From positions 1,056,001-1,120,000 of the forward strand of contig JAWAWX010000001.1 of assembly GCA_038897215.1 (NCBI GenBank): DNA of 64,000 nt. Reading direction: 5' to 3'. Shown here piece after piece: positions 6,546-38,141 of this stretch. The stretch is from Acidilobaceae archaeon. GTDB lineage: Archaea > Thermoproteota > Thermoprotei_A > Sulfolobales > Acidilobaceae. The position numbers and the translations under genes were made by a program. The stretch's first letter is position 1. Each line of letters starts with the position of its first letter. The notes under the pieces are model-generated. The model did not search any database and was not told the DNA's origin. It worked only from the letters and a program-made list of their open reading frames with translations.

Positions 6546-7940
6546 GTGGTGCTGAAAGTGGTGTTGTATCGAGGAGAGCTCGAAGGCTTAGACCACGAGT
6601 TCAAAGAATTTCTAACACGCAGACTAGACATAGCCTCCTATGTGTCTACTCTCAGGATACTAGACTACCTCCAGTACACAAACCCCCCCTACGTCCAGAG
6701 GAAGATGGCAGTAGACCTGAGCGAGCCTCAGTCAAGGATATCTCAGCTCGTGGACTCTCTAGAGGAGAGAGGAGTTAGGGTTAGGTTAGACTTCTCCCAC
6801 GTGCCTCTAGGACTCAAACTCCTCATAGTCATCGTAGAGGGGGCCAGAGCTCTAACTAACAGACTTCCGCTCGTCGACTGGGTCTCTGTAGCCTACAGGA
6901 TCTCGAGAGGAGTCCTAGCTGTTTACAGAGCACCCGCTGATAAAGCGAGCGAGATTATAGACATTTTGAGAACCCGAACCACCCTAATAGCTATGAGTAA
7001 GAGCTCAGTAAAAGCAGAGTTCTTCGAAGTAGAGGACGGGCTCCTAGCTAGGCCTAGTCTCGAGTACTGGCTCTACAGAGTCTTCGACGAGTACCCAGGC
7101 TTGGAGAAAGTGAATCCAATCAACGCCTTCGACCTGCTAGAAAGGCATCCTCGCAGAATAGACACCTCCAACTCTCTAGACTTAGAGGAGGACATAGCGT
7201 TCTACCCTGGAGAGCCATACATAGGGTTTAGAGACATCTACGACCTCGTGCTACTATCGCACATGGAGCGTTCAATATTCCACATTAAGTCTCACAACAT
7301 AGATGAAATGCTTCTAAGAACCTTCGGCAAGCCCAAGCTACAAACGCTAGCTCACGAGAAACACGTAGCCAGCTTATCGCGCGGAAGCAGAGTAGTGACA
7401 CACGGAACCGACCCCCAGAGAGGGGTCATGAATCTAGTCTGTATAGCTGAGGGCTCTGAGAGAGCTGTTAGAGAGCTCGCGAGAGACTTGAAGAAGCACC
7501 CGTACGCTTACAGTCTAGCCAAGCTGAAGAATGTGGGGCTCTTCTTCACCATGAGCATGCCCGTAGCGTATGTGAATAGGCTAGCTTTAGAGGTAGAGGA
7601 CAGATATGGGGTAGACGTGACGCACATATATCAAGTCTCGATAGAGGATGTTCTGCTGAGGCAGACGATACCGTTCAGAAACTACGACCAAGCGAATAGA
7701 AGATGGTCTTTCGATAACACTGTCGGAACAGTGCTACTAAACTACCTCAGGGGATTCGTATCGACAAAAGAGAAGATCGAGCGGGACGTGAGAGAGTACA
7801 TTGAGATGGCTAAGAGTAGTTACGGAGAAGACAGGGTTTTAGATGCTGTGAGAGAACTGGGGTTCGACTCGATAAACGACCTGATAGATGAGGTTGAGAG
7901 AGCTAAGAGGAAGAGGAGAGAGATGAAGACACAGAGGTAG
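6546..7940 (+). CDS. large putative regulator with N-terminal HTH and tandem Lrp/AsnC-like repeats
   Basis: QRKMAVDLSEPQSRISQLVDSLEERG HTH then VPLGLKLLIVIV; second degenerate repeat ending TIPFRNYD...WSF. Confidence 0.55.
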   Translation: MVLKVVLYRGELEGLDHEFKEFLTRRLDIASYVSTLRILDYLQYTNPPYVQRKMAVDLSEPQSRISQLVDSLEERGVRVRLDFSHVPLGLKLLIVIVEGARALTNRLPLVDWVSVAYRISRGVLAVYRAPADKASEIIDILRTRTTLIAMSKSSVKAEFFEVEDGLLARPSLEYWLYRVFDEYPGLEKVNPINAFDLLERHPRRIDTSNSLDLEEDIAFYPGEPYIGFRDIYDLVLLSHMERSIFHIKSHNIDEMLLRTFGKPKLQTLAHEKHVASLSRGSRVVTHGTDPQRGVMNLVCIAEGSERAVRELARDLKKHPYAYSLAKLKNVGLFFTMSMPVAYVNRLALEVEDRYGVDVTHIYQVSIEDVLLRQTIPFRNYDQANRRWSFDNTVGTVLLNYLRGFVSTKEKIERDVREYIEMAKSSYGEDRVLDAVRELGFDSINDLIDEVERAKRKRREMKTQR

Positions 7941-10142: not shown

Positions 10143-10961
10143 TTGCTCGATGCCTGCAGGAGAGGGAGCGGGCTGGTTAGAGTAGACTTGGGTCTTAGAG
10201 AGGCTAGAGTCTCGGAGTCGGGGGGCTTTTGTAGAGTCTCATCGGGTATCTTCGAGGCTTCTGTGAGGCTTGGTGATGTAGAGGAGGCTGTTGAGGAAGC
10301 CGGGGAGAGAGATGTTATCGTGGTGCAGGCTTCAGGAGAGCTGGTGGTAGCTGAGATTAGAGGAGAGCACTACTACAGGCTAGTTTCTCTAGGCGAGACT
10401 GCTCCAACGCTGGAGATCGACGGGATCCACATGCATAGAGTATCCGAGACCACTCCCTGGGCTGATGCCGAGCTCAAAGTGAGACTAGCGGGAGTAAGGA
10501 GAGGCTACAGAGTGCTCGATGTCTGCACGGGTCTAGGCTACACTGCTATACACTCTCTACTCAGAGGAGCTACTAGCGTTACCACGATAGAGGTCGATGA
10601 GAACGTGTTGACTCTAGCAGAGCTAAACCCTTGGAGTGAGCTCCTAGGAGACCCTAGAGTAGTCTTGATTAAAGGAAACGCTGTAGAGGTCGTCGGGGAG
10701 CTCAAGGGAAGCTATCACGTAGTGATACACGACCCCCCGCGGTTCGCGTCCTCCACGGGAGAACTCTACAGCGTGAGCTTTTACAGAGAGCTCTACAGGC
10801 TTCTAGCAAGAGGAGGGAGGCTCTTCCACTATACTGGAGAGCCTGGGAGAGCGAGAGGAGCCCAGTTCCCCTCACGAGTAGCCTCTAAGCTCGAGGAGGC
10901 TGGGTTCAGAGTTCTGAGATACGACTCGAGAGCTCTAGGAGTAGTAGCGGTCAAGCTCTAG
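10143..10961 (+). CDS. archaeal SAM-dependent methyltransferase (COG2521-like)
   Basis: PTLEIDGIHMHR, VLDVCTGLGYTA, HDPPRF. Confidence 0.85.
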   Translation: MLDACRRGSGLVRVDLGLREARVSESGGFCRVSSGIFEASVRLGDVEEAVEEAGERDVIVVQASGELVVAEIRGEHYYRLVSLGETAPTLEIDGIHMHRVSETTPWADAELKVRLAGVRRGYRVLDVCTGLGYTAIHSLLRGATSVTTIEVDENVLTLAELNPWSELLGDPRVVLIKGNAVEVVGELKGSYHVVIHDPPRFASSTGELYSVSFYRELYRLLARGGRLFHYTGEPGRARGAQFPSRVASKLEEAGFRVLRYDSRALGVVAVKL

Positions 10962-11051
10962 GAGAGTGGAGCGACTGCCCCGGCTACGCTCGAGTAATCA
11001 CAAAACTAAAATATCCGGGCTAGGGGGTAGTATAGAGGGCTGGGCGGAGTA

Positions 11052-11216
11052 ATGCAAGGAGGCTTTGAGATCATCGAGGAGTACGTGAAGCACGGAATGA
11101 GGAGATTCAAGGTGAGAGTAAAGGGGACTAACTTAGTCCTAGACCTTCACGCAGACAACGCTGAAGAAGCTCTCAAGAGAGCCGAGGAGATGGCTAGGAG
11201 AATCATGAGACTCTAG
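11052..11216 (+). CDS. 54-aa hypothetical protein (below ORF-track cutoff)
   Basis: MQGGFEIIEEYVKHGMRRFKVRVKGTNLVLDLHADNAEEALKRAEEMARRIMRL; GGAG RBS, A/T-rich promoter-like element near 11001-11014. Confidence 0.7.
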   Translation: MQGGFEIIEEYVKHGMRRFKVRVKGTNLVLDLHADNAEEALKRAEEMARRIMRL

Positions 11217-11268
11217 ACGCCCCCTCCCCCGACTTCCCGCTAGTTGTTCAGCAGAGCCGCTCCTAGGC

Positions 11269-11973
11269 TCAGCTAGGCGGCTTTACTGTCTTCTCACCGA
11301 CTATGTAGACTCTACCCGACTCTCTAACCTCTGTCTTGAATACTGGCGCCTCGAACTTGACTCTCTCTAGGGCTTCTGCTAGCGCTGGGATCGCGTTTTT
11401 CCTCGACAGTCCCGCTGTAGCTATCACTATAGTCTTCTCCCCGGGCTTCCTCCTACCCACGTAGTGCAGTATTGCTACACCTCTGAGCCCCCACTTCTCG
11501 CCGACTTCTCTAGCTATCTTCTCTAGAGACTTCTCTAGTAGCTCTTGGGAGTACTCGTAGACCAGCTCTTCTACACGCTCTCCCTCATTCTCGGGCTTGA
11601 CTACTCCTACGAAGACTGCTATAGCTCCGACTCCGAGCTTGCTCAACTCCTCTACTACCGCGTTCAAGTCTACCTCCTCTCCTTCTCTCACTACTCCACT
11701 AACGACTCTCAAGCCTCCTCCCGAGGGTAGAGGCATGAGGTGGACTACGTTACTCCTAGCTACTCCCCCCTTCTCCAGCCTCTCCCCACTCCCATCTAAG
11801 ACCACGAAGGAGTCTCCTAGAGCTTCCAGAACTCTAGCAATACCCTCTATCTTCGAGAGCTCACCCAGGATCTCCTCGAAGCTACCTCTCTCGACCTCAA
11901 CCTCGACCTCAGGCCTTCCCGCCATGTCTCTAAACAGGGAGTAGAGCTTGACTCTAACTCTCAAAGAGCACAC
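11269..11973 (-). CDS. moaE: MoaD-MoaE fusion (molybdopterin synthase)
   Basis: Ubiquitin-like N-domain ending MPLPSGG; MoaE motifs GAIAVFVGVV, KFEAPVFKTE. Confidence 0.88.
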   Translation of the reverse strand: MCSLRVRVKLYSLFRDMAGRPEVEVEVERGSFEEILGELSKIEGIARVLEALGDSFVVLDGSGERLEKGGVARSNVVHLMPLPSGGGLRVVSGVVREGEEVDLNAVVEELSKLGVGAIAVFVGVVKPENEGERVEELVYEYSQELLEKSLEKIAREVGEKWGLRGVAILHYVGRRKPGEKTIVIATAGLSRKNAIPALAEALERVKFEAPVFKTEVRESGRVYIVGEKTVKPPS

Positions 11974-25507: not shown

Positions 25508-26182
25508 CTAGCTATTGAGGGGGGGTAAAACGCTTTTCGGGCTGACGACCTTGTAGACTAGGTGAAGCCAGCCCGGGCACACCTCCCAGTAGTCTACTAG
25601 AGCTAGCTCGACTCTACTCTTCTCCCCGTCGAAGACCTCGCAGCGAGCTAGAGAGACTCCGGAGCCGAAGACGTATGGGGCTATGGTTACTCTGAGCTCG
25701 TCCACAAGCCCTGCGGCTAAAAGCGAGCAGTTGAGCATCCCTCCCCCCTCTACTAAGACTCTCCTAGCGCCCATATCGTAGAGTCTGGCTAGAGCTACGC
25801 TGAAGTCTATGGACTCTCTCCCTGCTCTAATCACTCTAACCCCCCGGTTAATGTAGCCAGCTAGGTCTTCATCACTCCATTTCTCTAAAGTGACCAAGAC
25901 CCCTCTCCCAGGAGACTCGAAGACTCTAGCCGAGGGGGGCACTCTGAGCTGAGCATCAACAACAACTCTGTAGTGGGGGCTAGGCCCCGGAGCCATCCTG
26001 GTAGTCAGCCTGGGGTCGTCGGAGATCGCGGTGTTAGCTCCCACCATGACCGCGTCGCTCACAGACCTCAAGCTGTGGAGAAGCTCCAGGTCTCTCGGGC
26101 AGCTGAGCCTAGAGAAGCCCGTCCTACTCGCTATCCTACCATCTAGAGTCATCGTCGAGAATATAGTAACGTGAGGCCTCAA
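25508..26182 (-). CDS. arfC: RibD-C/ArfC-type pyrimidine nucleotide reductase
   Basis: TLDGRIA, VGANT..DDPRLT, LVEGG. Confidence 0.85.
   Translation of the reverse strand: MRPHVTIFSTMTLDGRIASRTGFSRLSCPRDLELLHSLRSVSDAVMVGANTAISDDPRLTTRMAPGPSPHYRVVVDAQLRVPPSARVFESPGRGVLVTLEKWSDEDLAGYINRGVRVIRAGRESIDFSVALARLYDMGARRVLVEGGGMLNCSLLAAGLVDELRVTIAPYVFGSGVSLARCEVFDGEKSRVELALVDYWEVCPGWLHLVYKVVSPKSVLPPLNS
25836..25851 (-). repeat. origin-proximal motif copy A (TTAAC-CGGGGG-GTTAG)
   Basis: Plus strand CTAAC CCCCCG GTTAA, inside arfC. Confidence 0.75.
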
Positions 26183-26252
26183 GAGTAGAGCCTCCTAGAG
26201 AAAGAAGCTCTCCTCGAGAGACTTATAACCCTAGACTCGTATAACCTCAGTG

Positions 26253-26312
26253 GACCCCGGTTGCCCGCGCGACACCCCCGCGTATCGGAGGAGAGTGAGC
26301 GCGGGACGGGTC
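26253..26312. ncRNA. GC-rich intergenic long hairpin, candidate structured RNA or leader
   Basis: GACCC/GGGTC, CCCGCGC/GCGCGGG, and on minus strand CACUCUC/GGGGGUG stems. Confidence 0.45.
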
Positions 26313-26390
26313 GCTCCCGGCCTCTATCAACACTCTTAATCCCCCTATATTAGGGCTCTTCGAGAGCCAGGTCTCCGAGGGTGTCGTAGA

Positions 26391-26717
26391 GTGAGCGGAG
26401 AGAAGAGTGGTGGTAGAGTGCGTGTCGAGAGAGTAGGCGATAGAACCTACAGGGTTTTATTTGAGGGAGAGGACCACACTATGGGCAACTTGCTCGCTAC
26501 GACCCTCACGGGTATGCCTGAGGTTGAAGCGGCTAGCTACATGAAGCCTCATCCTCTCGAAGACAAGATCGTGGTCTTCGTCTCTCTCAGAGATAGTGGA
26601 GTCGATGTTGTAGACGTGTTGATCAAAGCTCTCGAGAGGATACTAGAGAAGAACAAGGTCTTCAGAGAGCTCTACCTAGCTGCTCTCAGAGAGAGAGGAG
26701 TGTCTATTGAAGCCTGA
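26391..26717 (+). CDS. rpoL: RNA polymerase subunit L (Rpo11)
   Basis: GEDHTMGNLL, YMKPHPL. Confidence 0.95.
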   Translation: MSGEKSGGRVRVERVGDRTYRVLFEGEDHTMGNLLATTLTGMPEVEAASYMKPHPLEDKIVVFVSLRDSGVDVVDVLIKALERILEKNKVFRELYLAALRERGVSIEA

Positions 26718-27006
26718 GGCTAGAGTACTCTTATCCAGGTGTAGCGATGATGTCTGCGCTTCGGTAATCGCTAGAGGCAGAAGCTTCGACAGCTTGATCC
26801 TAGCTGAGAGCTGTGCTGAGCTCTGCGCGAGACTAGAGAGAGAAGGCTACGCTGGAGAGCTACGCTATGCTCTAGGAGACTGTACTTGCGGTGCTCCAGC
26901 ACCCCCGGGGCCCGTTGAGGCTGAGAGCTTCTACGAGCCTCTCCTAGTTAAGCTTATAGGTCTAGCCGGTAGGATGAAGAGAGCTAGAGCGCTTCAGCCA
27001 AGCTAG
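26707..27006 (+). CDS. Cys-rich hypothetical protein in rpoL-tfs operon
   Basis: Overlaps rpoL end; 6 Cys. Confidence 0.6.
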   Translation: MKPEARVLLSRCSDDVCASVIARGRSFDSLILAESCAELCARLEREGYAGELRYALGDCTCGAPAPPGPVEAESFYEPLLVKLIGLAGRMKRARALQPS

Positions 27007-27008
27007 AG

Positions 27009-27359
27009 GTGGGGGGATTGCTGAGATTCTGCCCTAGATGCGGTGCTTTGATGAGCCCTAGGAGAGAGAGCGATGGCTCTAGCTCTCTCGCATGCCCTAG
27101 ATGCGGCTACACTGAGAGAACCCAGGAGGCTGTAACGATACAGGTGAAGAGTAGCGCTAAGAGGAACCCTAGAGATAAGACTCTAGTGCTAGACAAGGAG
27201 AAGACCCCGGAGACTCTCCAAACAGTCTCCATAGTGTGCCCTAAGTGCGGCAATGATAAAGCCTACTTCTGGATGATGCAGACCAGAGCAGCCGACGAGC
27301 CCCCCACTAGGTTCTACAGGTGCACTAAGTGTGGCTACACTTGGAGAGAGTACGCTTAA
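27009..27359 (+). CDS. tfs: transcription factor S (cleavage factor)
   Basis: Two Zn ribbons; QTRAADEP catalytic loop. Confidence 0.95.
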   Translation: MGGLLRFCPRCGALMSPRRESDGSSSLACPRCGYTERTQEAVTIQVKSSAKRNPRDKTLVLDKEKTPETLQTVSIVCPKCGNDKAYFWMMQTRAADEPPTRFYRCTKCGYTWREYA

Positions 27360-27555
27360 GCTCTCCTGTAGAGACATCCTGGAGGTTCTAGAGAAAGGGC
27401 TCTCGAGACTAGTCGAGGACCTAGCTAGAGCCTCTAGCACTACTCCCCCCACTATCTCATCGAAGCAGCTGGTAGCGGGAGCGCTAGAGCTAGCTATGGG
27501 GCTCAGAGACTCTGTCTCGCTAGCTCGAGAGCTCTGCTTGTGTAGAGAGTCTTGA
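27331..27555 (+). CDS. possible small helical protein
   Basis: Fills gap between tfs and Lrp gene; amphipathic. Confidence 0.4.
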   Translation: MATLGESTLKLSCRDILEVLEKGLSRLVEDLARASSTTPPTISSKQLVAGALELAMGLRDSVSLARELCLCRES

Positions 27556-27610
27556 AACCGATCCTTTATAAGCCTCGAGACCTACCAGGATTGCTGTGGT
27601 GTAGAGGTCC

Positions 27611-27859
27611 GTGCCTACAGAGGCAGTGATATTGATCAACGTCGATATAGGCAAGGAGGAGACAGTCTTCCAGAAGCTTCTCGAGATTCCCGAGGTTAAG
27701 GAAGCATACATAGTCTACGGTATCCACGACTTGATAACTGTAGTGAAAGCCGATGGGTTGGAGGAGCTCAGGCAAGTAGTTGTCCAGAAGATAAGGAAAA
27801 TCGAGGGAGTCAGGAACACGATAACGTGTATAGTAGTTAAGAAAGAGCAGAAGGCTTAA
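27611..27859 (+). CDS. stand-alone Lrp/AsnC ligand-binding (RAM) domain
   Basis: EAVILINVDIG...EVKEAYIVYGIHDL...IRKIEGVRNTIT. Confidence 0.9.
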   Translation: MPTEAVILINVDIGKEETVFQKLLEIPEVKEAYIVYGIHDLITVVKADGLEELRQVVVQKIRKIEGVRNTITCIVVKKEQKA

Positions 27860-27882
27860 TTCTAGAGAACGAAAGGTAGCCC

Positions 27883-29226
27883 ATGAGGCTGGTCACTCTA
27901 GCCTTCGATAGCATTGATAGCATCGACGCTGGCTGCACTACTCACTTCGCTTCTCTACTACTACTGAAGCTAAGAGGTAGAGTCAAGCTAGCCGACTTAC
28001 CGCTCCTCGTTAGACTCAATCCAGCAATCCCCTGGAAGACTAGAGGAAACGCTTCAGTAGCTCTCAGACTCTACTACGATGGGAGGCTAGAGGAGCTCCT
28101 CGATGAGACCGTAGAGCTAGCCGAAGAGTATAGCGGAGACAGGGAGCTCTACGGTATCACTGTAGCCTCTGGAGCCCCCTGGAGAGACCCCGACTTCAGG
28201 AGGCTCTACGAGAAATCCTTGACCAGCGTGGTCCCAGTAGATGTAGCTGTAGAGCTAGCTGAGCGGAAGAGAGTACTCTGGAGTGGCGGTAGAGGCGTTG
28301 TTGGAGCTCTAGCCGCTCTAGCAGCTCTAGCCGATAGAGAAGACTACACGTTCGAACTCGTAGCTTACAGGAAGCCTGAAGAGTGGGGCTCTGAGAGGTG
28401 TGTTAGAGAAGGGCTCGCAGCGGCTCTCCTCGAGGAAGAGCTCCCTCCGTGTGTGTTCAATAACTATGACCCTTTAACCGGGGAGTTAACTGCTGCTCCT
28501 AGAGGCTACGACCCTGTGCTAGCAGGCTTTAGAGGAGACTGTTACGAGAGCCTCCCCGCTTACTCGAGACTACTCTGCGAGGAGCCCAGCTTCTGGACTC
28601 TATACAGGTCCAATCAGCACACAGACGCGCACGCTAAGCCTCTAGAGGGCAGACTCTACCCCTACGAGTCGGGCTATGTGAGAGGAGTAGTAGTAGATGC
28701 TGAGGTTCTCCCGGGCTCGCATACAGTGGTTGAGATCGAGACGAGTGATGGGAGAGTAGACGCTGTATTCTATAGAGAAACCTTCCCCATGAATAGAGTA
28801 GCTGCTGAGCTGAGAAGAGGCGATAAGGTAGCGGTATACGGTAGCGTGAGACCATACAAGCCTAGAGGTAGAGTAGTCCTAGCCTCCGAGAAGCTAGTAG
28901 TCGAGAGCATAGCTAGAAGAGTCATCCAGGCAAACCCCAGATGCCCACTCTGCGGGTCTAGGCTTGAGAGCTCTGGAGCAGGAAAGAAGCTCAGATGCCG
29001 TAACTGCAGATACGTAGCCAGAGACCAGGCGAAGATAGAGATAGAGGTTGAGACAACGGTATTGCCAGCTGTATACACTCCAAGACCTGGGAGGCTGAGA
29101 CACCTAGTCGCTCCACCTAGCAGAAGGCCTAGGCTAGACTACGAGCTCCCCCTAGAGCCTCTAAGCGTTGAGGATGTCGTGAGTCGTACACCACCCAAGC
29201 CTCCTCTAGTAAAGCATCGTGTTTAA
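27883..29226 (+). CDS. tiaS: tRNA(Ile2) agmatidine synthetase
   Basis: GCTT, LVRLNPAIPWKTRGN, SNQHTD, OB fold, CPLC..CRNC Zn ribbon. Confidence 0.95.
   Translation: MRLVTLAFDSIDSIDAGCTTHFASLLLLKLRGRVKLADLPLLVRLNPAIPWKTRGNASVALRLYYDGRLEELLDETVELAEEYSGDRELYGITVASGAPWRDPDFRRLYEKSLTSVVPVDVAVELAERKRVLWSGGRGVVGALAALAALADREDYTFELVAYRKPEEWGSERCVREGLAAALLEEELPPCVFNNYDPLTGELTAAPRGYDPVLAGFRGDCYESLPAYSRLLCEEPSFWTLYRSNQHTDAHAKPLEGRLYPYESGYVRGVVVDAEVLPGSHTVVEIETSDGRVDAVFYRETFPMNRVAAELRRGDKVAVYGSVRPYKPRGRVVLASEKLVVESIARRVIQANPRCPLCGSRLESSGAGKKLRCRNCRYVARDQAKIEIEVETTVLPAVYTPRPGRLRHLVAPPSRRPRLDYELPLEPLSVEDVVSRTPPKPPLVKHRV
28473..28490 (+). repeat. origin-proximal motif copy B (TTTAAC-CGGGGA-GTTAAC)
   Basis: Inside tiaS. 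Confidence 0.75.
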
Positions 29227-29239
29227 CCGGGGGGTTTAG
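29222..29239 (+). repeat. origin-proximal motif copy C (TTTAAC-CGGGGG-GTTTAG)
   Basis: Overlaps tiaS stop and abuts first ORB. Confidence 0.8.
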
Positions 29240-29240
29240 A

Positions 29241-29638
29241 CCCCCTCGTTTCCTCTGGAGCCCACTCAAGCGAGTCTAGAGCCTTAGCTGAGAAGATGAG
29301 AGGAGCTGTAATCGAGCCGGACTCCTAGACTCTACCCACACCCCTCGTTTTCTACTGGAGAGCTATCTACATGTGAAAAACAAGATTTGAACCTTCACGA
29401 GATAAGAGTAATCGCTGTTCGCGATGCTATAGTTCTAGCTCTGATTAAAGTTTGTATAACGTTTTTAGCAACGGCCGAGCTGTATTCTAGAAAGTCGGCG
29501 CCATGGGGTCTAGTGGAAGTAGAGGGGTGCGGCTCTCGAGAGTATACACTCATGTATAGACATCGCCTCAGCGAGCATCAATGAGACCCCCCCGTTTCCA
29601 CTGGAGCCCACCAGTTACTGTAGATAATTCCCCTGGAG
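29241..29638. other. oriC: chromosomal replication origin (oriC) with ORBs and AT-rich DUE
   Basis: ORB/G-string repeats CCCCCTCGTTTCCTCTGGAG (29241), CCCCTCGTTTTCTACTGGAG (29341), inverted TCTAGTGGAAGTAGAGGGG (29509), CCCCCCCGTTTCCACTGGAG (29587), mini-ORB TTCCCCTGGAG (29628); AT-rich 29370-29470. Confidence 0.88.
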
Positions 29639-29663
29639 TTACTGCTAGCGAGCGGGTCGAGCT

Positions 29664-30407
29664 TTGAGCTGCGACCCTCTCATAGAGGCTGCTCGAGGAG
29701 CACTCGACTTAGTCAGAGGCCTCCTAAGAGAGAACACTATCCTAGGAGCGGGGACTGGCAGGACTGTAGTAGCGTTCCTCAACATGCTCTCACGAGAATC
29801 CCCCAAATCTATCTACGTGGTGCCATCTAGTCTAGATACAGCTCTCCTAGCCTCACGCTTAGGCTTCAGAGTCCTCGACCCTAGGACCGTAGAGTCTCTA
29901 GATGTCTATGTTGATGGAGCAGATGAGGTCGACGAGAGAGGCTTTATGCTCAAGGGGGGCGGTGGAGCAATGCTCGGAGAGAAGATAATGGCCTACAGTA
30001 GCTCTCTAAACGTGTTCGCGGTATCAGAAGACAAGCTAGTAGAGAGGATCGGGTCGAGGAGACCTATCCCAGTAGAGGTGGAGCCAGGCTATCTGGCTAT
30101 GGTCTTGAAGACTCTTGAGTCTATGGGGCTTAGAGGGACTCTCAGAGAGTCAGTGGGTAAGAAGGGCCCCCTGGCTTCAGACTGGGGAGGAGTCATAGTA
30201 GACGTGGAGACAGAACCGTTAAGCGACCCGGAGAGCTTGGAGAGAGTTTTGAAGAGCGTGCCGGGAGTCCTGGAGACAGGCATATTCGCTGGCTACGCTG
30301 ACTACGTGGTAGTAGGCTTCTCGCGATGCGGGTATAGAGTGCTGAGATTCGAGAGAACTAAGCGTCGCCAGCATCAGAGCTTCGAGCAGCTAAACCCCCC
30401 GGTTTAA
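29664..30407 (+). CDS. rpiA: ribose-5-phosphate isomerase A
   Basis: GAGTGRT, DGADEVD, KGGGG..LGEK. Confidence 0.95.
   Translation: MSCDPLIEAARGALDLVRGLLRENTILGAGTGRTVVAFLNMLSRESPKSIYVVPSSLDTALLASRLGFRVLDPRTVESLDVYVDGADEVDERGFMLKGGGGAMLGEKIMAYSSSLNVFAVSEDKLVERIGSRRPIPVEVEPGYLAMVLKTLESMGLRGTLRESVGKKGPLASDWGGVIVDVETEPLSDPESLERVLKSVPGVLETGIFAGYADYVVVGFSRCGYRVLRFERTKRRQHQSFEQLNPPV
30390..30407 (-). repeat. origin-proximal motif copy D (TTAAAC-CGGGGG-GTTTAG)
   Basis: Overlaps rpiA stop; inverted relative to copy C (17/19 identity over 29221-29239 vs 30390-30408). Confidence 0.8.
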
Positions 30408-30800: not shown

Positions 30801-30962
30801 TCATAAGAAGATATGGAGTACTCCCACTAAGACAGCTAAAGCTATAGCCGCTAGGAGCACAGCTATCGGTGATAGCTTAAGCCTGCCCTCGAACTCCTCG
30901 TAGAACGATATCAGACCAGCAGCGCTCATAGGCCCCCCGGTTCTCCTCCTTCTACTCGACAC
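30801..30962 (-). CDS. secG: preprotein translocase Sec61beta/SecG (missed by ORF track)
   Basis: MSSRRRRTGGPMSAAGLISFYEEFEGRLKLSP plus TM helix. Confidence 0.9.
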   Translation of the reverse strand: MSSRRRRTGGPMSAAGLISFYEEFEGRLKLSPIAVLLAAIALAVLVGVLHIFL

Positions 30963-34534: not shown

Positions 34535-35487
34535 GGGATAGGCTCACCTAGAGCTAGAAACGTGTTCTTTATAGCTTTACGCACTCTCTCCGCTACCTCT
34601 TTGTCGACGACGACTCTATACACTTTGTTCTTTAAGCTCAGGTAGACTTTCTCGATAGTTATCTTCTTCATATCCCAACATATAGCCTCGCTTGACGCTG
34701 GGATGAAGACCTTGCCCGGATTCTCTCTAAGCATCCTGTATATTATGCCTACCTCGGTTCCAACCAGGAAGACTCTACTATCGCTTCTCCTAGCTCTCAC
34801 AATCATCTGGCTCGTGCTCCCGGTATAGTCAGCTAGTCTTCTTACTCCTCGAGGGCACTCTGGATGGACTAGGACCTCTGCTTCTCCATATATTCTCTTC
34901 AACTCGAGAATGGCTTCTTCGCTGAAGCGTTGATGTACTGGGCAGTGCCCATTGGCTGGAACAGGGATCACTGTTTTCCCCGTGACTTCAGCTATGTACT
35001 CGGCTAAGTGTCTATCAGGACCGAATATGACTGTATCTTCCTTCAGTGCGGCAACAAGCCTGGCAGCGTTGGCGCTAGTAACCACGTAGTCGGAGTATGC
35101 TTTAACTAGTGCTGGCGAGTTCACATACATCACAATTGGAGCTTTCGGGTGCTTCTTCTTAGCCTTCAACACCTCTTCAGGCGTTATCATAGCAGCCATG
35201 GGGCACCTGGCTTCCGGGTCTGGATGGAGAACAATAGAGTCTTCATTTAATATAGCTGCTTGCTCAGCCATGAAGTCCACCCCGCAGAAGACTATGTATC
35301 TCGCTTTCGTCTCGCTAGCTTTGATCGAGAGCTCTAAGCTATCACCTACGTAGTCTGCGACTTCTTGAACTTCAGGTTTCTGGTAGTTATGAGCTAAGAC
35401 GACCGCGTTCAGGTCTCTCTTAAGCCTCGCTATTTCCTCATAGTAGTTTATCTTCATTACAGTAGTCCCTAGCGGGACAGCACTCAC
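34522..35487 (-). CDS. nadA: quinolinate synthase
   Basis: LAHNYQ, CGVDFMAE, CPMA, CPVH, HPEC. Confidence 0.95.
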   Translation of the reverse strand: MSAVPLGTTVMKINYYEEIARLKRDLNAVVLAHNYQKPEVQEVADYVGDSLELSIKASETKARYIVFCGVDFMAEQAAILNEDSIVLHPDPEARCPMAAMITPEEVLKAKKKHPKAPIVMYVNSPALVKAYSDYVVTSANAARLVAALKEDTVIFGPDRHLAEYIAEVTGKTVIPVPANGHCPVHQRFSEEAILELKRIYGEAEVLVHPECPRGVRRLADYTGSTSQMIVRARRSDSRVFLVGTEVGIIYRMLRENPGKVFIPASSEAICWDMKKITIEKVYLSLKNKVYRVVVDKEVAERVRKAIKNTFLALGEPIPWKK

Positions 35488-35578
35488 AATCAGTAGTATT
35501 TAAGGATTGATCTAGCGCTCCAGCCGTGAGTCGAGAAGGCAGAGAGTCTCGAGCGCTAGCAAAGACTACTCCCGCATC

Positions 35579-36139
35579 TCACTCTACCAATCCGGCTTCT
35601 CTTAGCCTCCTTAGGATCACGTGGCTGTCTTCGAATTCAAGTGCATCCTCATAGAGCCTCTCTCTATCTATTGACAGCTTCCTCGCTCTCAGAGCTCTAG
35701 CTATATCCTTAAGTCTCTCAATATCGCTAGACCTGCCCGCGTTGGCTTTGAGGACTAGGTGCTCCTCTAGACCTAGCATCCTAACCTCTATGCCCTCTAC
35801 TCTGACAGAGTTCACTCTCCTCTCTAGGAATCCTGGAGGCACGAAGAAATCGTGGATGTTATCGTAAAACTCGAATGGCACCTCTTCGCCGGCAGCTCTT
35901 ATGATGAGTCTAGGAGTCCCGAGCCACGTATGGCCTAGAACCCACTTGTTGCTCGACGCTACAGAAACGAAAGCATCCTCATCGTAGACTAGAGGATTCT
36001 CCGAGAACACATCCACATCATCCCCCAAGTCGCTAGAGCCTAGCATAAGCTCGACTATAGTCCCACCTATCACCACGAACTCGAACCCCTCCGAGTAGAG
36101 CTTCTTGACCGCCTCAGCTAGCGCTCTCCGAGAGACCAC
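35579..36139 (-). CDS. stand-alone nucleotidyltransferase (DUF2204-like)
   Basis: FVVIGG...DVD...LVLKANAGRSSD. Confidence 0.75.
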   Translation of the reverse strand: MVSRRALAEAVKKLYSEGFEFVVIGGTIVELMLGSSDLGDDVDVFSENPLVYDEDAFVSVASSNKWVLGHTWLGTPRLIIRAAGEEVPFEFYDNIHDFFVPPGFLERRVNSVRVEGIEVRMLGLEEHLVLKANAGRSSDIERLKDIARALRARKLSIDRERLYEDALEFEDSHVILRRLREAGLVE

Positions 36140-36186
36140 AGGAGAACCCCCGCCTTCCCGCCTAGCTCAAAACTTTATACGTCTAG

Positions 36187-36777
36187 ATGAGCCGGCTCTT
36201 CACGGGGGAGCTTGTGGACTATCTGAGGGTATTTGTTGCAATAGATGTAGAGGACCCTCTTCTCGTCTCGAGACTAGAGAGACTCAAAGAGTCTATCCTA
36301 TCTACCGGTGTCCCCATGAAGCCTGTGGAGCCTTACAATTACCACATAACCATCAGGTTCATAGGAGAGACTCCTAGAAGAGTTGTAGATGAGATAGTCA
36401 AGCAACTCAAGACACTCTCCTTCAAGCCGTTCAGAGCTACTCTACGAGGACTAGGAGCGTTCCCATCGATCTCGAGTCCTCGAGTAGTCTGGGTTGGGGT
36501 CAGCGAGGGGGAGAGAGAGCTTAGAGAGCTCCGGGACTCCGTGGATTCTCTTCTGAGAAGGCTGGGCATTCCTGCTGAGAGAGAGGAGTTCAAGGCTCAC
36601 GTGACTCTAGCTAGGATAAAGGGGTCAAGAAACATGAGTAGCTTAGTCAAACTCTTGGCAGACCTCTCAGACTACGAGATAGGCTCGATGGAAGTTCGCT
36701 CCTTGAGATTGAAGAAGAGTATGCTCACAAGAGAAGGCCCCATATACGAGACCATAGCAGAGGTCAAGTCTTTATGA
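36187..36777 (+). CDS. thpR: RNA 2',3'-cyclic phosphodiesterase / 2'-5' RNA ligase
   Basis: Two HxT motifs (HIT, HVT). Confidence 0.92.
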   Translation: MSRLFTGELVDYLRVFVAIDVEDPLLVSRLERLKESILSTGVPMKPVEPYNYHITIRFIGETPRRVVDEIVKQLKTLSFKPFRATLRGLGAFPSISSPRVVWVGVSEGERELRELRDSVDSLLRRLGIPAEREEFKAHVTLARIKGSRNMSSLVKLLADLSDYEIGSMEVRSLRLKKSMLTREGPIYETIAEVKSL

Positions 36778-38141
36778 GTATAGCTAGGCTTGTAGAGGGA
36801 GAGGTTCTCGAATACATTAGGCCAGAGCCTTGGCATCTCAAGGCTCTCGAAGCTCTAGTAGCGATCATAAAGTTCTCGCTCGAGAGGTGTCTAAAGAAGC
36901 TAGGATTAGAAGCTAGGGTGAGCGTAGAGGGTAGCTTCGCTAAGAAGACACTTCTCTCCGATAAGAGAGAGGTAGATGTCTTCGTGCTCTTCAAAGACGT
37001 CACGGATGAGTGGATAGAGAGGGAAAGCTTAGAGATACTCGAGAAATGCCTGGGGGGAGTGTTCAAGATAAAGAAGAAGTATGCTCAGCACCCATACGTC
37101 ACGGTAGAGCTAGACGACCTCTCAGCAGATGTGGTTCCAGCAAGACTCATAGAGTCTCCTAGCGAGAGCTCTCTAGGCGTTAGCAGAACTCCATTCCATA
37201 CCAAGTACGTCCTGGAGAAGATTCAAGCAAACCCCTCTCTAGCTGATGAAATAAGGCTCCTTAAGTCATTCATGAGGGGGGTCGGAGTCTACGGAGCGGA
37301 ATCAGGTATCGATGGCTTCTCAGGCTATCTAGCGGAATTGCTTGTAGTGAAGTACGGAGGGTTCAGAGAGGTTCTGAATGCCGTCTCTCAGTGGAGCCCC
37401 CCCGTATACATAGATGTCGAGAATGCGGGTGTTGAGGAGGAGCTGAGAAAGAGGTATAGAGACTCGCCCATCATAGTAGTAGACCCGGTAGACCCGAAGC
37501 GTAACGCTGCAGCATCTGTCTCTCTCGAGAAGCTCGCACTCTTCATAATAGCATCTAAGCTCTACGTGAAGAACCCGGATAAAAGCTTCTTCCACGTATT
37601 CTCAGAAAAGCTTAGAATCGAGACCCCGGCTATTGTAGCGTTCTGTGAGGGAGACTTCTCGAGTAGAGATGAGGCTGTCGTGCTCGGAAAGCTGAAGAGA
37701 GTCTCCGATACTCTATGGGTTTACCTCAGAAACCATGGCTTCAAGCCTCTCTGGAGAACCTACGGGTACGAGGGCGACAGAGCAGTCATCGCTGTCGGCT
37801 TGGAGTCTCTCTCGATCCCACAACTTGAGCAGAGAGAGGGCCCTACTGCGTGGAGTAGCAGTGAGAGAGTTCTTGCTTTCATCTCCAAAAGGCTTCGAGA
37901 AGAAGGGTACGCGTGGGTAGGTGCAGACGGGAGGCTATACGGGCTGAGAGCTAGGAGCTTTAGCCATGTGTCGATGTTAGCGGCTACTCTTAGCGCTAAA
38001 GTCTCTCAGATACTCTCTTCAGATTGTAGCGTAGAAGCTTGTGAGAACTCGTGGAGGTGCTTGAGAGAGTCTTGCGTAAACCTCGGAGCATTAGTAGGCT
38101 ACCCAGCGTATGCCTGGATGAGGTTAGCGTTGAGAGCATAG
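36774..38141 (+). CDS. cca: class I CCA-adding enzyme
   Basis: GSFAKKT..EVDVF, YAQHPY, RTPFH, GFSGYLAELL, DPVDPKRNAA. Confidence 0.95.
   Translation: MSIARLVEGEVLEYIRPEPWHLKALEALVAIIKFSLERCLKKLGLEARVSVEGSFAKKTLLSDKREVDVFVLFKDVTDEWIERESLEILEKCLGGVFKIKKKYAQHPYVTVELDDLSADVVPARLIESPSESSLGVSRTPFHTKYVLEKIQANPSLADEIRLLKSFMRGVGVYGAESGIDGFSGYLAELLVVKYGGFREVLNAVSQWSPPVYIDVENAGVEEELRKRYRDSPIIVVDPVDPKRNAAASVSLEKLALFIIASKLYVKNPDKSFFHVFSEKLRIETPAIVAFCEGDFSSRDEAVVLGKLKRVSDTLWVYLRNHGFKPLWRTYGYEGDRAVIAVGLESLSIPQLEQREGPTAWSSSERVLAFISKRLREEGYAWVGADGRLYGLRARSFSHVSMLAATLSAKVSQILSSDCSVEACENSWRCLRESCVNLGALVGYPAYAWMRLALRA

Follow-up and report, generated by a model that had tools for sequence, protein, structure and literature searches.

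Sites of the parS and SegB type organise or segregate chromosomes, and parS sites cluster around oriC. Xer/dif sites, which are about 28 bp long and consist of two 11-bp arms around a spacer of 6-8 bp, occur once per replicon and away from origins. The conjugative plasmids of Sulfolobus carry a repeat motif that was reportedly termed a recombination motif by Stedman et al. in 2000 and Greve et al. in 2004. In archaea, SegB sites gather at segAB and not at origins (PMC12284271). Archaeal origins have so far been described by ORB and mini-ORB elements, the ucm/UBP pair, and initiators. The ucm, to which UBP binds as a monomer, is an AT-rich 11-mer located centrally in the unwinding element (Dhanaraju et al. 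2025, PMC12141716), and every origin of Sulfolobales and Aeropyrum-type genomes has one (PMC12141716). UBP was found through a DNA-affinity and linker-scanning approach (PMC12141716), and the initiator WhiP is required for oriC3 alone in S. islandicus (PMC3607249).

This paper describes a near-palindromic box of 16-18 bp that would add a further element to this set. The box was analysed in a window of 64,000 nucleotides (the whole stretch of DNA under study), in the genome to which the window belongs, in related genomes, and on conjugative plasmids. The searchable literature gave no description of the chromosomal box, and neither the motif string nor its variants matched an archaeal paper. We propose that the box belongs to the replication-origin regions of crenarchaea as a cis component and is read by a putative dimeric origin-marking protein, a reading to which we assign a probability of about 0.55.

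Copies of the box in the window and the genome

The consensus of the box is GTTAAC-CGGGGR-GTTAAC, with the 12-mer core AACCGGGGRGTT. The initial annotation had reported four copies, and the core was indeed found four times in the window, with the coordinates and strands given there, at 25838 (minus), 28476 (plus), 29225 (plus), and 30393 (minus). Copy A, TTAAC-CGGGGG-GTTAG (25836-25851, minus), lies within a RibD_C (arfC-like) gene (25508-26182, identified by Pfam), on its sense strand and 3.6 kb from the origin centre. Copy B, TTTAAC-CGGGGA-GTTAAC (28473-28490, plus), lies within tiaS (27883-29226, plus; identified by Pfam), a gene that in Acidilobaceae keeps synteny with the ORB/ucm origin. 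Copy C, TTTAAC-CGGGGG-GTTTAG (29222-29239, plus), overlaps the TAA stop of tiaS and abuts the first ORB, at 224 bp from the ucm, and copy D, TTAAAC-CGGGGG-GTTTAG (30390-30407, minus), overlaps the TAA stop of rpiA (29664-30407, plus; identified by Pfam) on the opposite strand. Copies C and D bracket a segment of 1.17 kb that contains the ORBs, the ucm, and rpiA. Tolerating one mismatch added no core copy across the 64 kb. The near-copy proposed earlier in this region, AACCGGGGGGCC (30931-30942, minus), is present, but it lacks the right arm; as the genome holds 52 occurrences of the 8-mer AACCGGGG, this near-copy is probably a chance match and was not counted as a box.

Genome-wide (1.16 Mb), the core occurs 17 times versus 0.17 expected under an order-3 Markov model, an excess of approximately 100-fold, and dinucleotide shuffles of the window gave an expectation of 0.00 copies. 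The earlier claim that the core is exclusive to these 4.6 kb is correct within the window and fails genome-wide, where 13 more copies are present, four of them in a second cluster. The copies sit in tiaS, rpiA, RibD_C, MoxR, a PLP enzyme, and other housekeeping genes. A replichore polarity was sought among the 17 copies and none was found. An RNA or hairpin reading of the box was dropped, because no Rfam family matched it and its folds are weak (-1 to -5 kcal/mol) and comparable to those of shuffled sequences.

The clustering might in principle be due to chance, to composition, or to a mobile-element remnant such as a MITE, an explanation with nothing in its favour except the small absolute copy number per genome. 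It is refuted by the excess over the Markov-3 expectation, by a reversed-sequence control that gave near-zero matches across 41 genomes, and by the runs of identity with a sister species described below, and we consider its probability negligible. Moreover, the information content falls to background beyond approximately 18 bp, so that there is no extended repeat, the dispersed copies reside in unrelated housekeeping genes, and the position of the box is kept across four families.

Origins of the genome and placement of the box

The origin core of the window (29243-29615) consists of three ORB-like elements, with pattern matches starting at 29248, 29347, and 29594, that flank an AT-rich stretch and that were restricted to this locus in a genome-wide search. 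It includes a putative ucm, TTATACAAACT (29449-29459, minus), which matches the core of the published UCMwt oligonucleotide (PMC12141716), and of which the genome contains exactly two occurrences, one at the tiaS-side origin and one at the whiP locus. By these sequence criteria the ORB/ucm origin beside tiaS is real. The second putative origin, marked by the other ucm, adjoins the initiator gene whiP, whose homologues carry the name replication initiator WhiP, at 468 kb from the tiaS-side origin; we infer both origins from such marks. Eight of the 17 core copies form two clusters, one per ucm origin, each copy being at most 3.7 kb from one of the two ucm sites (binomial P = 1.5e-11), and the other nine are located away from the origins.

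The earlier proposal that the constraint acts on the DNA was supported. The copies are read in three different reading-frame contexts, namely AAC CGG GGG GTT at copy A in the RibD_C gene, TTA ACC GGG GAG TTA in tiaS, and AAC CCC CCG GTT TAA at the end of rpiA, on the strand opposite the box. In a sister species, copies B and C fall in identical runs of 17 and 16 nt, respectively, and the boxes rank among the longest identical runs between the two species, which share 64% DNA identity in this region. The box is under constraint at the DNA level whatever the frame or strand, and in as well as outside genes.

The box in related genomes

The box is present in 21 of the 24 genomes of the family, and it is found near tiaS-linked origins and near whiP in most Acidilobaceae genera. 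One to three boxes are present at 11 of the 13 Acidilobaceae-type tiaS loci, in most cases with an ORB or ucm alongside, and their codon position and orientation differ between genera. Of the non-plasmid copies in four complete Sulfolobaceae genomes, most or all are located approximately 3 kb or less from oriC1, oriC2, or oriC3: all four copies in G072 and four of the five in G081 are beside orc1-1/ucm, orc1-3, or whiP, the fifth G081 copy residing in an integrated plasmid, and G062 and G090 display the same pattern. The spacing between box and ucm is 125-130 bp in family f11, and in family f6 the box adjoins tiaS. Overall, one to four copies are positioned about 0.1-3 kb from both origins found in the present genome and from most origins examined in its relatives, in many cases one per side and in many cases at 110-220 bp from the ucm. 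These data support and extend the earlier inference of an origin-marking cis element common to crenarchaeal chromosomes and pNOB8/pING-type plasmids.

There are exceptions to this distribution. Most copies in the Caldisphaera-like genome G017 are away from origins, and one box pair in it brackets only a metallo-beta-lactamase-fold gene; clustering of its copy at 1.7 kb with those at 1.499 Mb was ruled out, the contig being 1,546,846 bp long. In Aeropyrum-like genomes, no exact copy lies closer than 20 kb to tiaS. Complete loss of the box with retention of whiP in genus g9 indicates that the box is dispensable or replaceable. An inward orientation, with the G-rich strand running 5' to 3' towards the origin, is obeyed by the innermost copies of this genome, by 14 of 15 Sulfolobaceae sites, and by four plasmids, but this rule is not universal, as many other Acidilobaceae whiP loci break it.

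The boxes might alternatively be iteron-like sites for the initiator WhiP, since they flank whiP in most loci: 26 of 30 Acidilobaceae whiP loci have a box within 1.5 kb, with two favoured slots at about -200 bp and about +170 bp, and four of five Sulfolobaceae whiP loci are flanked as well. WhiP has tandem winged helices as in plasmid Rep, and in vitro it binds each of the three S. solfataricus origins (PMC3607249). However, its ChIP-seq peaks in S. islandicus lie within the whiP ORF and at downstream intergenic borders (PMC3607249), whereas the boxes at the Sulfolobaceae whiP genes lie roughly 400 bp upstream and 1.0-1.4 kb downstream, with further boxes at oriC1 and oriC2, and WhiP is needed for oriC3 only (PMC3607249). 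In addition, the WhiP of the box-free genus g9 differs from all others at just two conserved positions, and pNOB8 carries 21 boxes and no WhiP homologue detectable by tblastn. Taken together, these observations make the iteron explanation highly improbable.

Sister boxes on conjugative plasmids

A sister box, TAAAC-TGGGGA-GTTTA, is present on pNOB8 (21 copies), pING1 (10), pAH1 (14), and pKEF9 (12). With one mismatch allowed, pNOB8 has 22 matches versus 0.39 expected, 21 of which are exact, and the plasmid motif that the initial annotation had brought up is real and massively over-represented. The TCTATACCCCC repeats of the putative plasmid origin have two plus-strand copies on their left and one minus-strand copy on their right (PMC4390865). 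The densest pNOB8 cluster (15.4-23.0 kb) was rejected as a candidate for that origin, since TCTATACCCCC, the published origin repeat, is located at 10.46 kb. Among all pNOB8 ORFs, matches in the present genome (tblastn) were limited to a helicase, a generic CopG-family protein, and HerA-like segments, and no conjugation or integrase gene was matched.

The many plasmid copies could also be understood if the boxes were a parS-like centromere for a partition or condensation protein, the plasmids carrying copies as sites to be partitioned. The general layout of the box, a near-palindromic 16-18-mer that numbers between a few and a few dozen copies, most of them genic, both clustered at origins and scattered, would suit this role. 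Nevertheless, a search of this genome (89.7% complete) gave no match to ParB_N (PF02195), and the two pNOB8 partition cassettes (1429-2942 and 35127-37761), annotated as pairs of winged-helix and ParB-domain genes, have no box in their upstream gaps. SegB, furthermore, recognises a different palindrome, TCTAGA-S-TCTAGA (PMC12284271); its core TAGA-S-TCTA occurs 110 times in this genome versus 18 times in the control, which suggests that the centromere role may already be filled. A parS-like role, in partition or SMC loading, is considered improbable.

Inversion of the whiP cassette

In three genera, the cassette of whiP plus ucm has opposite orientations in congeneric species, and both inversion breakpoints lie approximately 70 bp or less from the two flanking boxes. 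The link to recombination made by the initial annotation is thereby supported, and the finding would agree with the box being a true site-specific recombination site, with inverted arms and an asymmetric 6-bp spacer that is cut by a recombinase. Origins would then be, or would have been, mobile cassettes (captured extrachromosomal replicons) bounded by such sites, or would undergo programmed cassette inversion. The plasmids provide further arguments for this explanation: the integrase gene of pNOB8 is bracketed by one plus and one minus copy, pTC1 is the only one of five plasmids that lacks the motif and also the only one that lacks an annotated integrase, and the plasmid motif is reportedly termed a recombination motif.

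Several observations speak against recombination as the primary function. At several whiP loci the two boxes are direct and not inverted, and the orientation pairs differ between inverted relatives in a manner not attainable by a simple crossover in the spacer. No inversion was found at the tiaS-ORB-rpiA origin in the 14 loci compared. Long-term retention of the box at the Orc1-1 origin, which is presumably ancestral, speaks for an ongoing function and not for a scar. The arms of 5-6 bp are far below those of typical tyrosine-recombinase core sites. A single XerA-like gene was detected (genome positions 700254-701417; 216 bits versus an NCBIfam cut-off of 220), and in a search of this genome that yielded no serine recombinase, its product is the only recombinase of a known family. 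The contigs of four hot-spring metagenome runs, probably the source samples, all have the reference arrangement at the origin of the window and no joints, which bears neither way on inversion, as contigs drop rare variants. We regard a dedicated recombination site as unlikely, and recombination between boxes is best read as a side effect or second function of an origin-marking site.

Proposed role of the box

In the origin-marking reading, each box would be bound by a putative sequence-specific DNA-binding protein, which is probably a homodimer, since the box has two inverted arms of 5-6 bp that are centred about one helical turn apart. The predicted protein would mark or organise origins, for example by pairing flanking boxes to form a loop or to insulate the origin, or by holding origins together. 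The 10-21 sister boxes on the plasmids suggest that the same or a paralogous factor is used there. The whiP inversions and plasmid rearrangements may then be by-products of synapsis combined with the short-homology recombination that is typical of these archaea. Synteny and genes shared between plasmids and chromosomes were searched for the binder, and no candidate could be nominated. A 198-aa winged-helix gene adjacent to whiP, syntenic in 28 of 30 Acidilobaceae loci, was rejected as the source of the binder: the box-free genus g9 has it too, and in Sulfolobaceae the neighbourhood of whiP did not yield it.

A more speculative and, in our estimation, rather unlikely extension is that the box is the dock for a predicted origin organiser common to Sulfolobales-type chromosomes, in which synapsis closes each origin into a small loop and gathers the origins, plasmids join the resulting hub, and cassettes flip or move. 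If true, plasmids would be replicated or inherited by attaching to an origin hub via their sister boxes, and synapsis would offer a physical route by which extrachromosomal origins, as has been proposed, were captured. The box ties chromosomal origins to a long-unexplained repeat motif of Sulfolobus conjugative plasmids, and the behaviour of the WhiP origin as an invertible cassette bears on the rise of multi-origin chromosomes. Moreover, the box may help to predict origins in uncultured Thermoprotei, and its binder should be accessible to a DNA-affinity and linker-scanning approach of the type that was used for UBP.

Comparison with known systems

The box shares with ucm that both are short, conserved, non-ORB elements at origins. 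It differs from ucm in being GC-cored and near-palindromic, and in lying outside the ORB-DUE core, often in neighbouring genes; the ucm role itself is filled by the separate 11-mer TTATACAAACT, which occurs once per origin. Compared with ORB and mini-ORB, the dyad TCCAGTGGAAAC-like core is absent from the box, and the resemblance is restricted to the end composed of AAAC plus a G-string. Rep-type iterons lie beside the initiator gene, as the box does at whiP, but the box is not confined to whiP and does not co-vary with it, being present also at Orc1-type origins and lost in g9.

Like parS/ParB sites, the boxes are palindromic and clustered at origins, and they share with parS/SegB sites that they are multi-copy and mostly intragenic, although the SegB consensus is unrelated to the box sequence. 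The dif-like reading of the initial annotation was not supported, because the box occurs in many copies that are placed at origins and not as a single site elsewhere. Specifically, a Xer/dif site is single, whereas the box has 17 copies, 8 of them at two origins, and the box signal ends at about 18 bp, short of the length of a dif site; a Xer recombinase is represented in the genome by the XerA-like gene. Hin/Gin-type switches likewise involve a cassette of approximately 1 kb between two short sites that is found in both orientations in close relatives. The whiP cassette, however, has no associated invertase gene, its box pairs are not always inverted, and it flips an initiator gene plus origin where Hin/Gin flips a promoter or coding switch.

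With the pNOB8/pING-type motif TAAACTGGGGAGTTTA, finally, the chromosomal box shares the core AACYGGGGRGTT, a layout of two 5-bp inverted arms with a 6-bp G4 spacer between them, and an occurrence in many copies, in both orientations, and in genic as well as intergenic positions. The chromosomal box, TTAAC-CGGGGR-GTTAA, has C instead of T as the first spacer base and TTAAC instead of TAAAC arms, and it resides in housekeeping DNA beside origins, whereas the plasmid motif resides on a mobile element. Both are tied to rearrangement breakpoints, which on the chromosomal side are those of the whiP cassette inversions.

Box copies in the window and in the genome

The 12-mer AACCGGGGRGTT, core of a near-palindromic DNA element of 16-18 bp (the box), has four copies in the window: at 25838 (- strand; copy A, in an arfC-like RibD_C gene), 28476 (+; copy B, within tiaS), 29225 (+; copy C, on the tiaS stop codon) and 30393 (-; copy D, on the rpiA stop codon, opposite strand). 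These coordinates and strands agree with the initial annotation; a one-mismatch search of the window added no copies, and 0.00 copies were expected from shuffled window sequence. Because the copies use three different frame contexts, the constraint acts on DNA and not on protein, as had been proposed. Three ORB-like (Orc1-type) origin elements lie between copies C and D and nowhere else in the genome.

Scanning of the single 1,159,524-bp contig that contains the window revealed 17 copies of the core, whereas an order-3 Markov model predicts 0.17. Their alignment yielded the consensus GTTAAC-CGGGGR-GTTAAC, with information content at background level beyond approximately 18 bp, and the box is therefore neither a longer repeat nor a mobile element. 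Two four-copy clusters hold 8 of the 17 copies, one in the window and one at 616.8-619.4 kb of the genome, the latter enclosing the gene for a 223-aa tandem winged-helix protein whose homologues are named replication initiator WhiP (52% identity to the A. pernix protein). The 11-mer TTATACAAACT has exactly two genomic copies, one per cluster, at 29449-29459 of the window between the ORBs and approximately 60 bp past the whiP stop codon; it agrees with the core of the UCMwt oligonucleotide (supplement, PMC12141716), from the study that defined ucm and its binding protein UBP. In A. pernix, two origins have been reported, one of the Orc1-1 type and one of the WhiP type (PMC10769869). On the basis of the UCMwt match and this two-origin report, and as far as sequence marks show, both clusters are located on origins. 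The eight clustered copies are all less than 3.7 kb away from one of the two ucm sites (binomial P = 1.5e-11, for a distance window picked post hoc); the nine dispersed copies lie in or beside unrelated housekeeping genes. Chance is a practically negligible explanation of the box.

Several other features of this genome were recorded. The two orc1/cdc6 genes, at 262.7 kb and 470.4 kb, do not adjoin an origin. The outermost box of the whiP cluster has a C-5 cytosine DNA methyltransferase gene ~1.1 kb away (10592-11572, -, in the extracted whiP region L001; genome ~620.6-621.6 kb). For the SegB-type palindrome core TAGA-S-TCTA, 110 genomic copies were counted versus 18 for a W-centred control, an excess to which codon bias may contribute, and CTAGA-S-TCTAG has 13, with a SegB-type palindrome at 616728 as an example; these counts may point to a separate SegB-like site system. 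By its tiaS relatives the organism belongs to Acidilobaceae, and its DNA is also present in hot-spring metagenomes.

Conservation of the box among Acidilobaceae

Of 24 genomes from the same GTDB family, 21 contain the AACCGGGGRGTT core, with a maximum of 43 copies (reversed-sequence control near zero); in most of the order's other families the core is rare. Among the Acidilobaceae-type tiaS loci, 11 of 13 have one to three boxes in tiaS or within ~1.4 kb, and most box-bearing loci have ORB or ucm elements beside them. Codon position and orientation of the tiaS boxes vary by genus with the gene order tiaS-origin-rpiA constant, and box sites therefore turn over yet stay near the origin. In a sister-species comparison (2.6 kb, 64% nucleotide identity), eight identical runs were at least 14 nt long, two of them boxes.

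At the whiP loci, boxes lie within 1.5 kb in 26 of 30, preferentially ~160-260 bp upstream of the gene and ~145-225 bp past its stop, the downstream slot being ~100-160 bp beyond ucm. Beside whiP, this genome encodes a 198-aa winged-helix protein with a PH0730-like N-terminal domain (616476-617072; L001 6476-7072, +). Of 30 Acidilobaceae loci, 28 have this gene next to whiP, in one of three arrangements, and its stop codon is often overlapped by a box copy.

Genus g9 (G009, G021, G055; whiP loci L044, L063, L064) has no box copies. Its genomes contain GAGGGACCCC at 21-156 copies (reversed control 1-15); in G009, nine of them lie in the 5.5 kb surrounding whiP. This different, abundant motif seems to have replaced the box. 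In another relative (G017; 1,546,846 bp), an extended-arm box, AATTGTTAAC-CGGGGG-GTTAACAATT, and a near-perfect inverted partner (L096 4824-5585) enclose a single gene for a 205-aa metallo-beta-lactamase-fold protein together with the region upstream of it; the locus showed no origin mark.

Occurrence in other families and on conjugative plasmids

At Sulfolobaceae whiP loci (32-40% GC), ucm lies between two copies of TTAACCGGGGAGTTAA, one ~400 bp upstream of the gene and the other 1.0-1.4 kb downstream. In complete Sulfolobaceae genomes, every box copy was compared with the positions of orc1 genes, whiP and ucm. G072 has four copies, every one at an origin marker (one 527 bp from the oriC1 ucm, one upstream of orc1-3 at ~0.8 kb from the contig end, and two flanking whiP), and G090 has two copies, one at oriC1 and one at whiP. 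In G062, oriC1 has one copy, orc1-3 is surrounded by three and whiP has two; four more lie elsewhere. G081 (2,225,959 bp) has four of five copies at origin markers, and the fifth falls within a 30-kb stretch that contains nine plasmid-type copies. These nine copies (AACTGGGGAGTT; C1:395534-426816, ~31 kb of chromosome) presumably mark an integrated pNOB8-like conjugative plasmid. In a third family (f11), the distance between GTTAAC-TGGGGR-GTTAAC and a ucm is 125-130 bp, and two of the three loci also have an adjacent ORB-like core. A fourth family (f6) has a box at a distance of 32 bp from tiaS.

The Sulfolobus plasmid motif named in the initial annotation is real: AACYGGGGRGTT is present in four of the five conjugative plasmids counted, at 21 copies in pNOB8 (0.39 expected with one mismatch allowed), 10 in pING1, 14 in pAH1 and 12 in pKEF9, with the consensus TAAAC-TGGGGA-GTTTA. 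In each of these four, the TCTATACCCCC repeats have two + copies on one side, at a distance of 0.8-1.0 kb, and one or more - copies on the opposite side; a putative origin, predicted only, has been placed at these repeats (PMC4390865). The fifth plasmid, pTC1 (NC_005969, L093), has 0 copies and, alone among the five, has no annotated integrase; the TCTATACCCCC repeat is likewise absent.

Inversion of the whiP cassette

When whiP loci were oriented on the neighbouring 198-aa winged-helix gene, three gene arrangements emerged. Direct alignment revealed that a segment of ~0.9 kb with whiP and ucm is inverted between same-genus species in three genera, with collinear flanks and both breakpoints within ~70 bp of the two boxes. 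Box pairs thus delimit an invertible origin cassette. The plasmid literature calls the plasmid motif a recombination motif, a label that this inversion fits. That the box is a dedicated recombination site is nevertheless doubtful: some box pairs at whiP loci are direct and not inverted, the orientation pairs of inverted relatives differ in ways that simple spacer crossover cannot yield, and no inversion was seen at the tiaS origin in the compared loci. This genome has one XerA-like tyrosine recombinase only, and no serine recombinase was found in it. The dif-like reading first proposed was not borne out, as the box is multi-copy, located at origins and conserved over 18 bp only.

Nature of the box

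Other known elements were likewise rejected. The box lacks the dyad of an ORB or mini-ORB and resembles only the AAAC-plus-G-string end of ORBs, and ucm is a separate AT-rich 11-mer. No Rfam family matched and folds were weak, which disfavours a known RNA or stable hairpin. The SegB target is TCTAGA-S-TCTAGA (PMC12284271).

WhiP is an unlikely reader of the box, and boxes acting as WhiP iterons are very improbable. Binding of Sulfolobus WhiP to repeats within its own ORF has been reported; its sites in vivo and in vitro are elsewhere than boxes, and it acts at oriC3 only (PMC3607249). Moreover, no WhiP homologue was found in pNOB8, and genus g9 lost the box with WhiP almost unchanged. The whiP inter-domain linker of this genome (L001 ~7560-7650) contains putative degenerate arm-only copies (TTTAC.../GTAAAC...).

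As a conserved element of duplex DNA, the box marks chromosomal origin regions across four families, and conjugative plasmids carry a sister box in abundance, in line with the origin-marking element common to chromosomes and plasmids that the initial annotation had envisaged. A protein-docking, origin-organising element is the favoured reading, at slightly better than even odds (roughly 0.55). A sequence-specific protein, probably dimeric, would read the two GTTAAC arms, whose centres are ~11-12 bp apart, plus the G-tract; boxes flanking an origin would be brought together, and recombination could follow as a consequence of such synapsis. Candidate roles of this docking element include origin insulation or looping, origin clustering, programmed recombination and segregation. 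A centromere is an unlikely reading.

The box is directly testable in genetically tractable Sulfolobus species. No description of a chromosomal box at origins was found in the searchable literature, a scope outside which three key older papers fall. The plasmid motif is old knowledge, and its chromosomal counterpart at origins is the part that is probably new.
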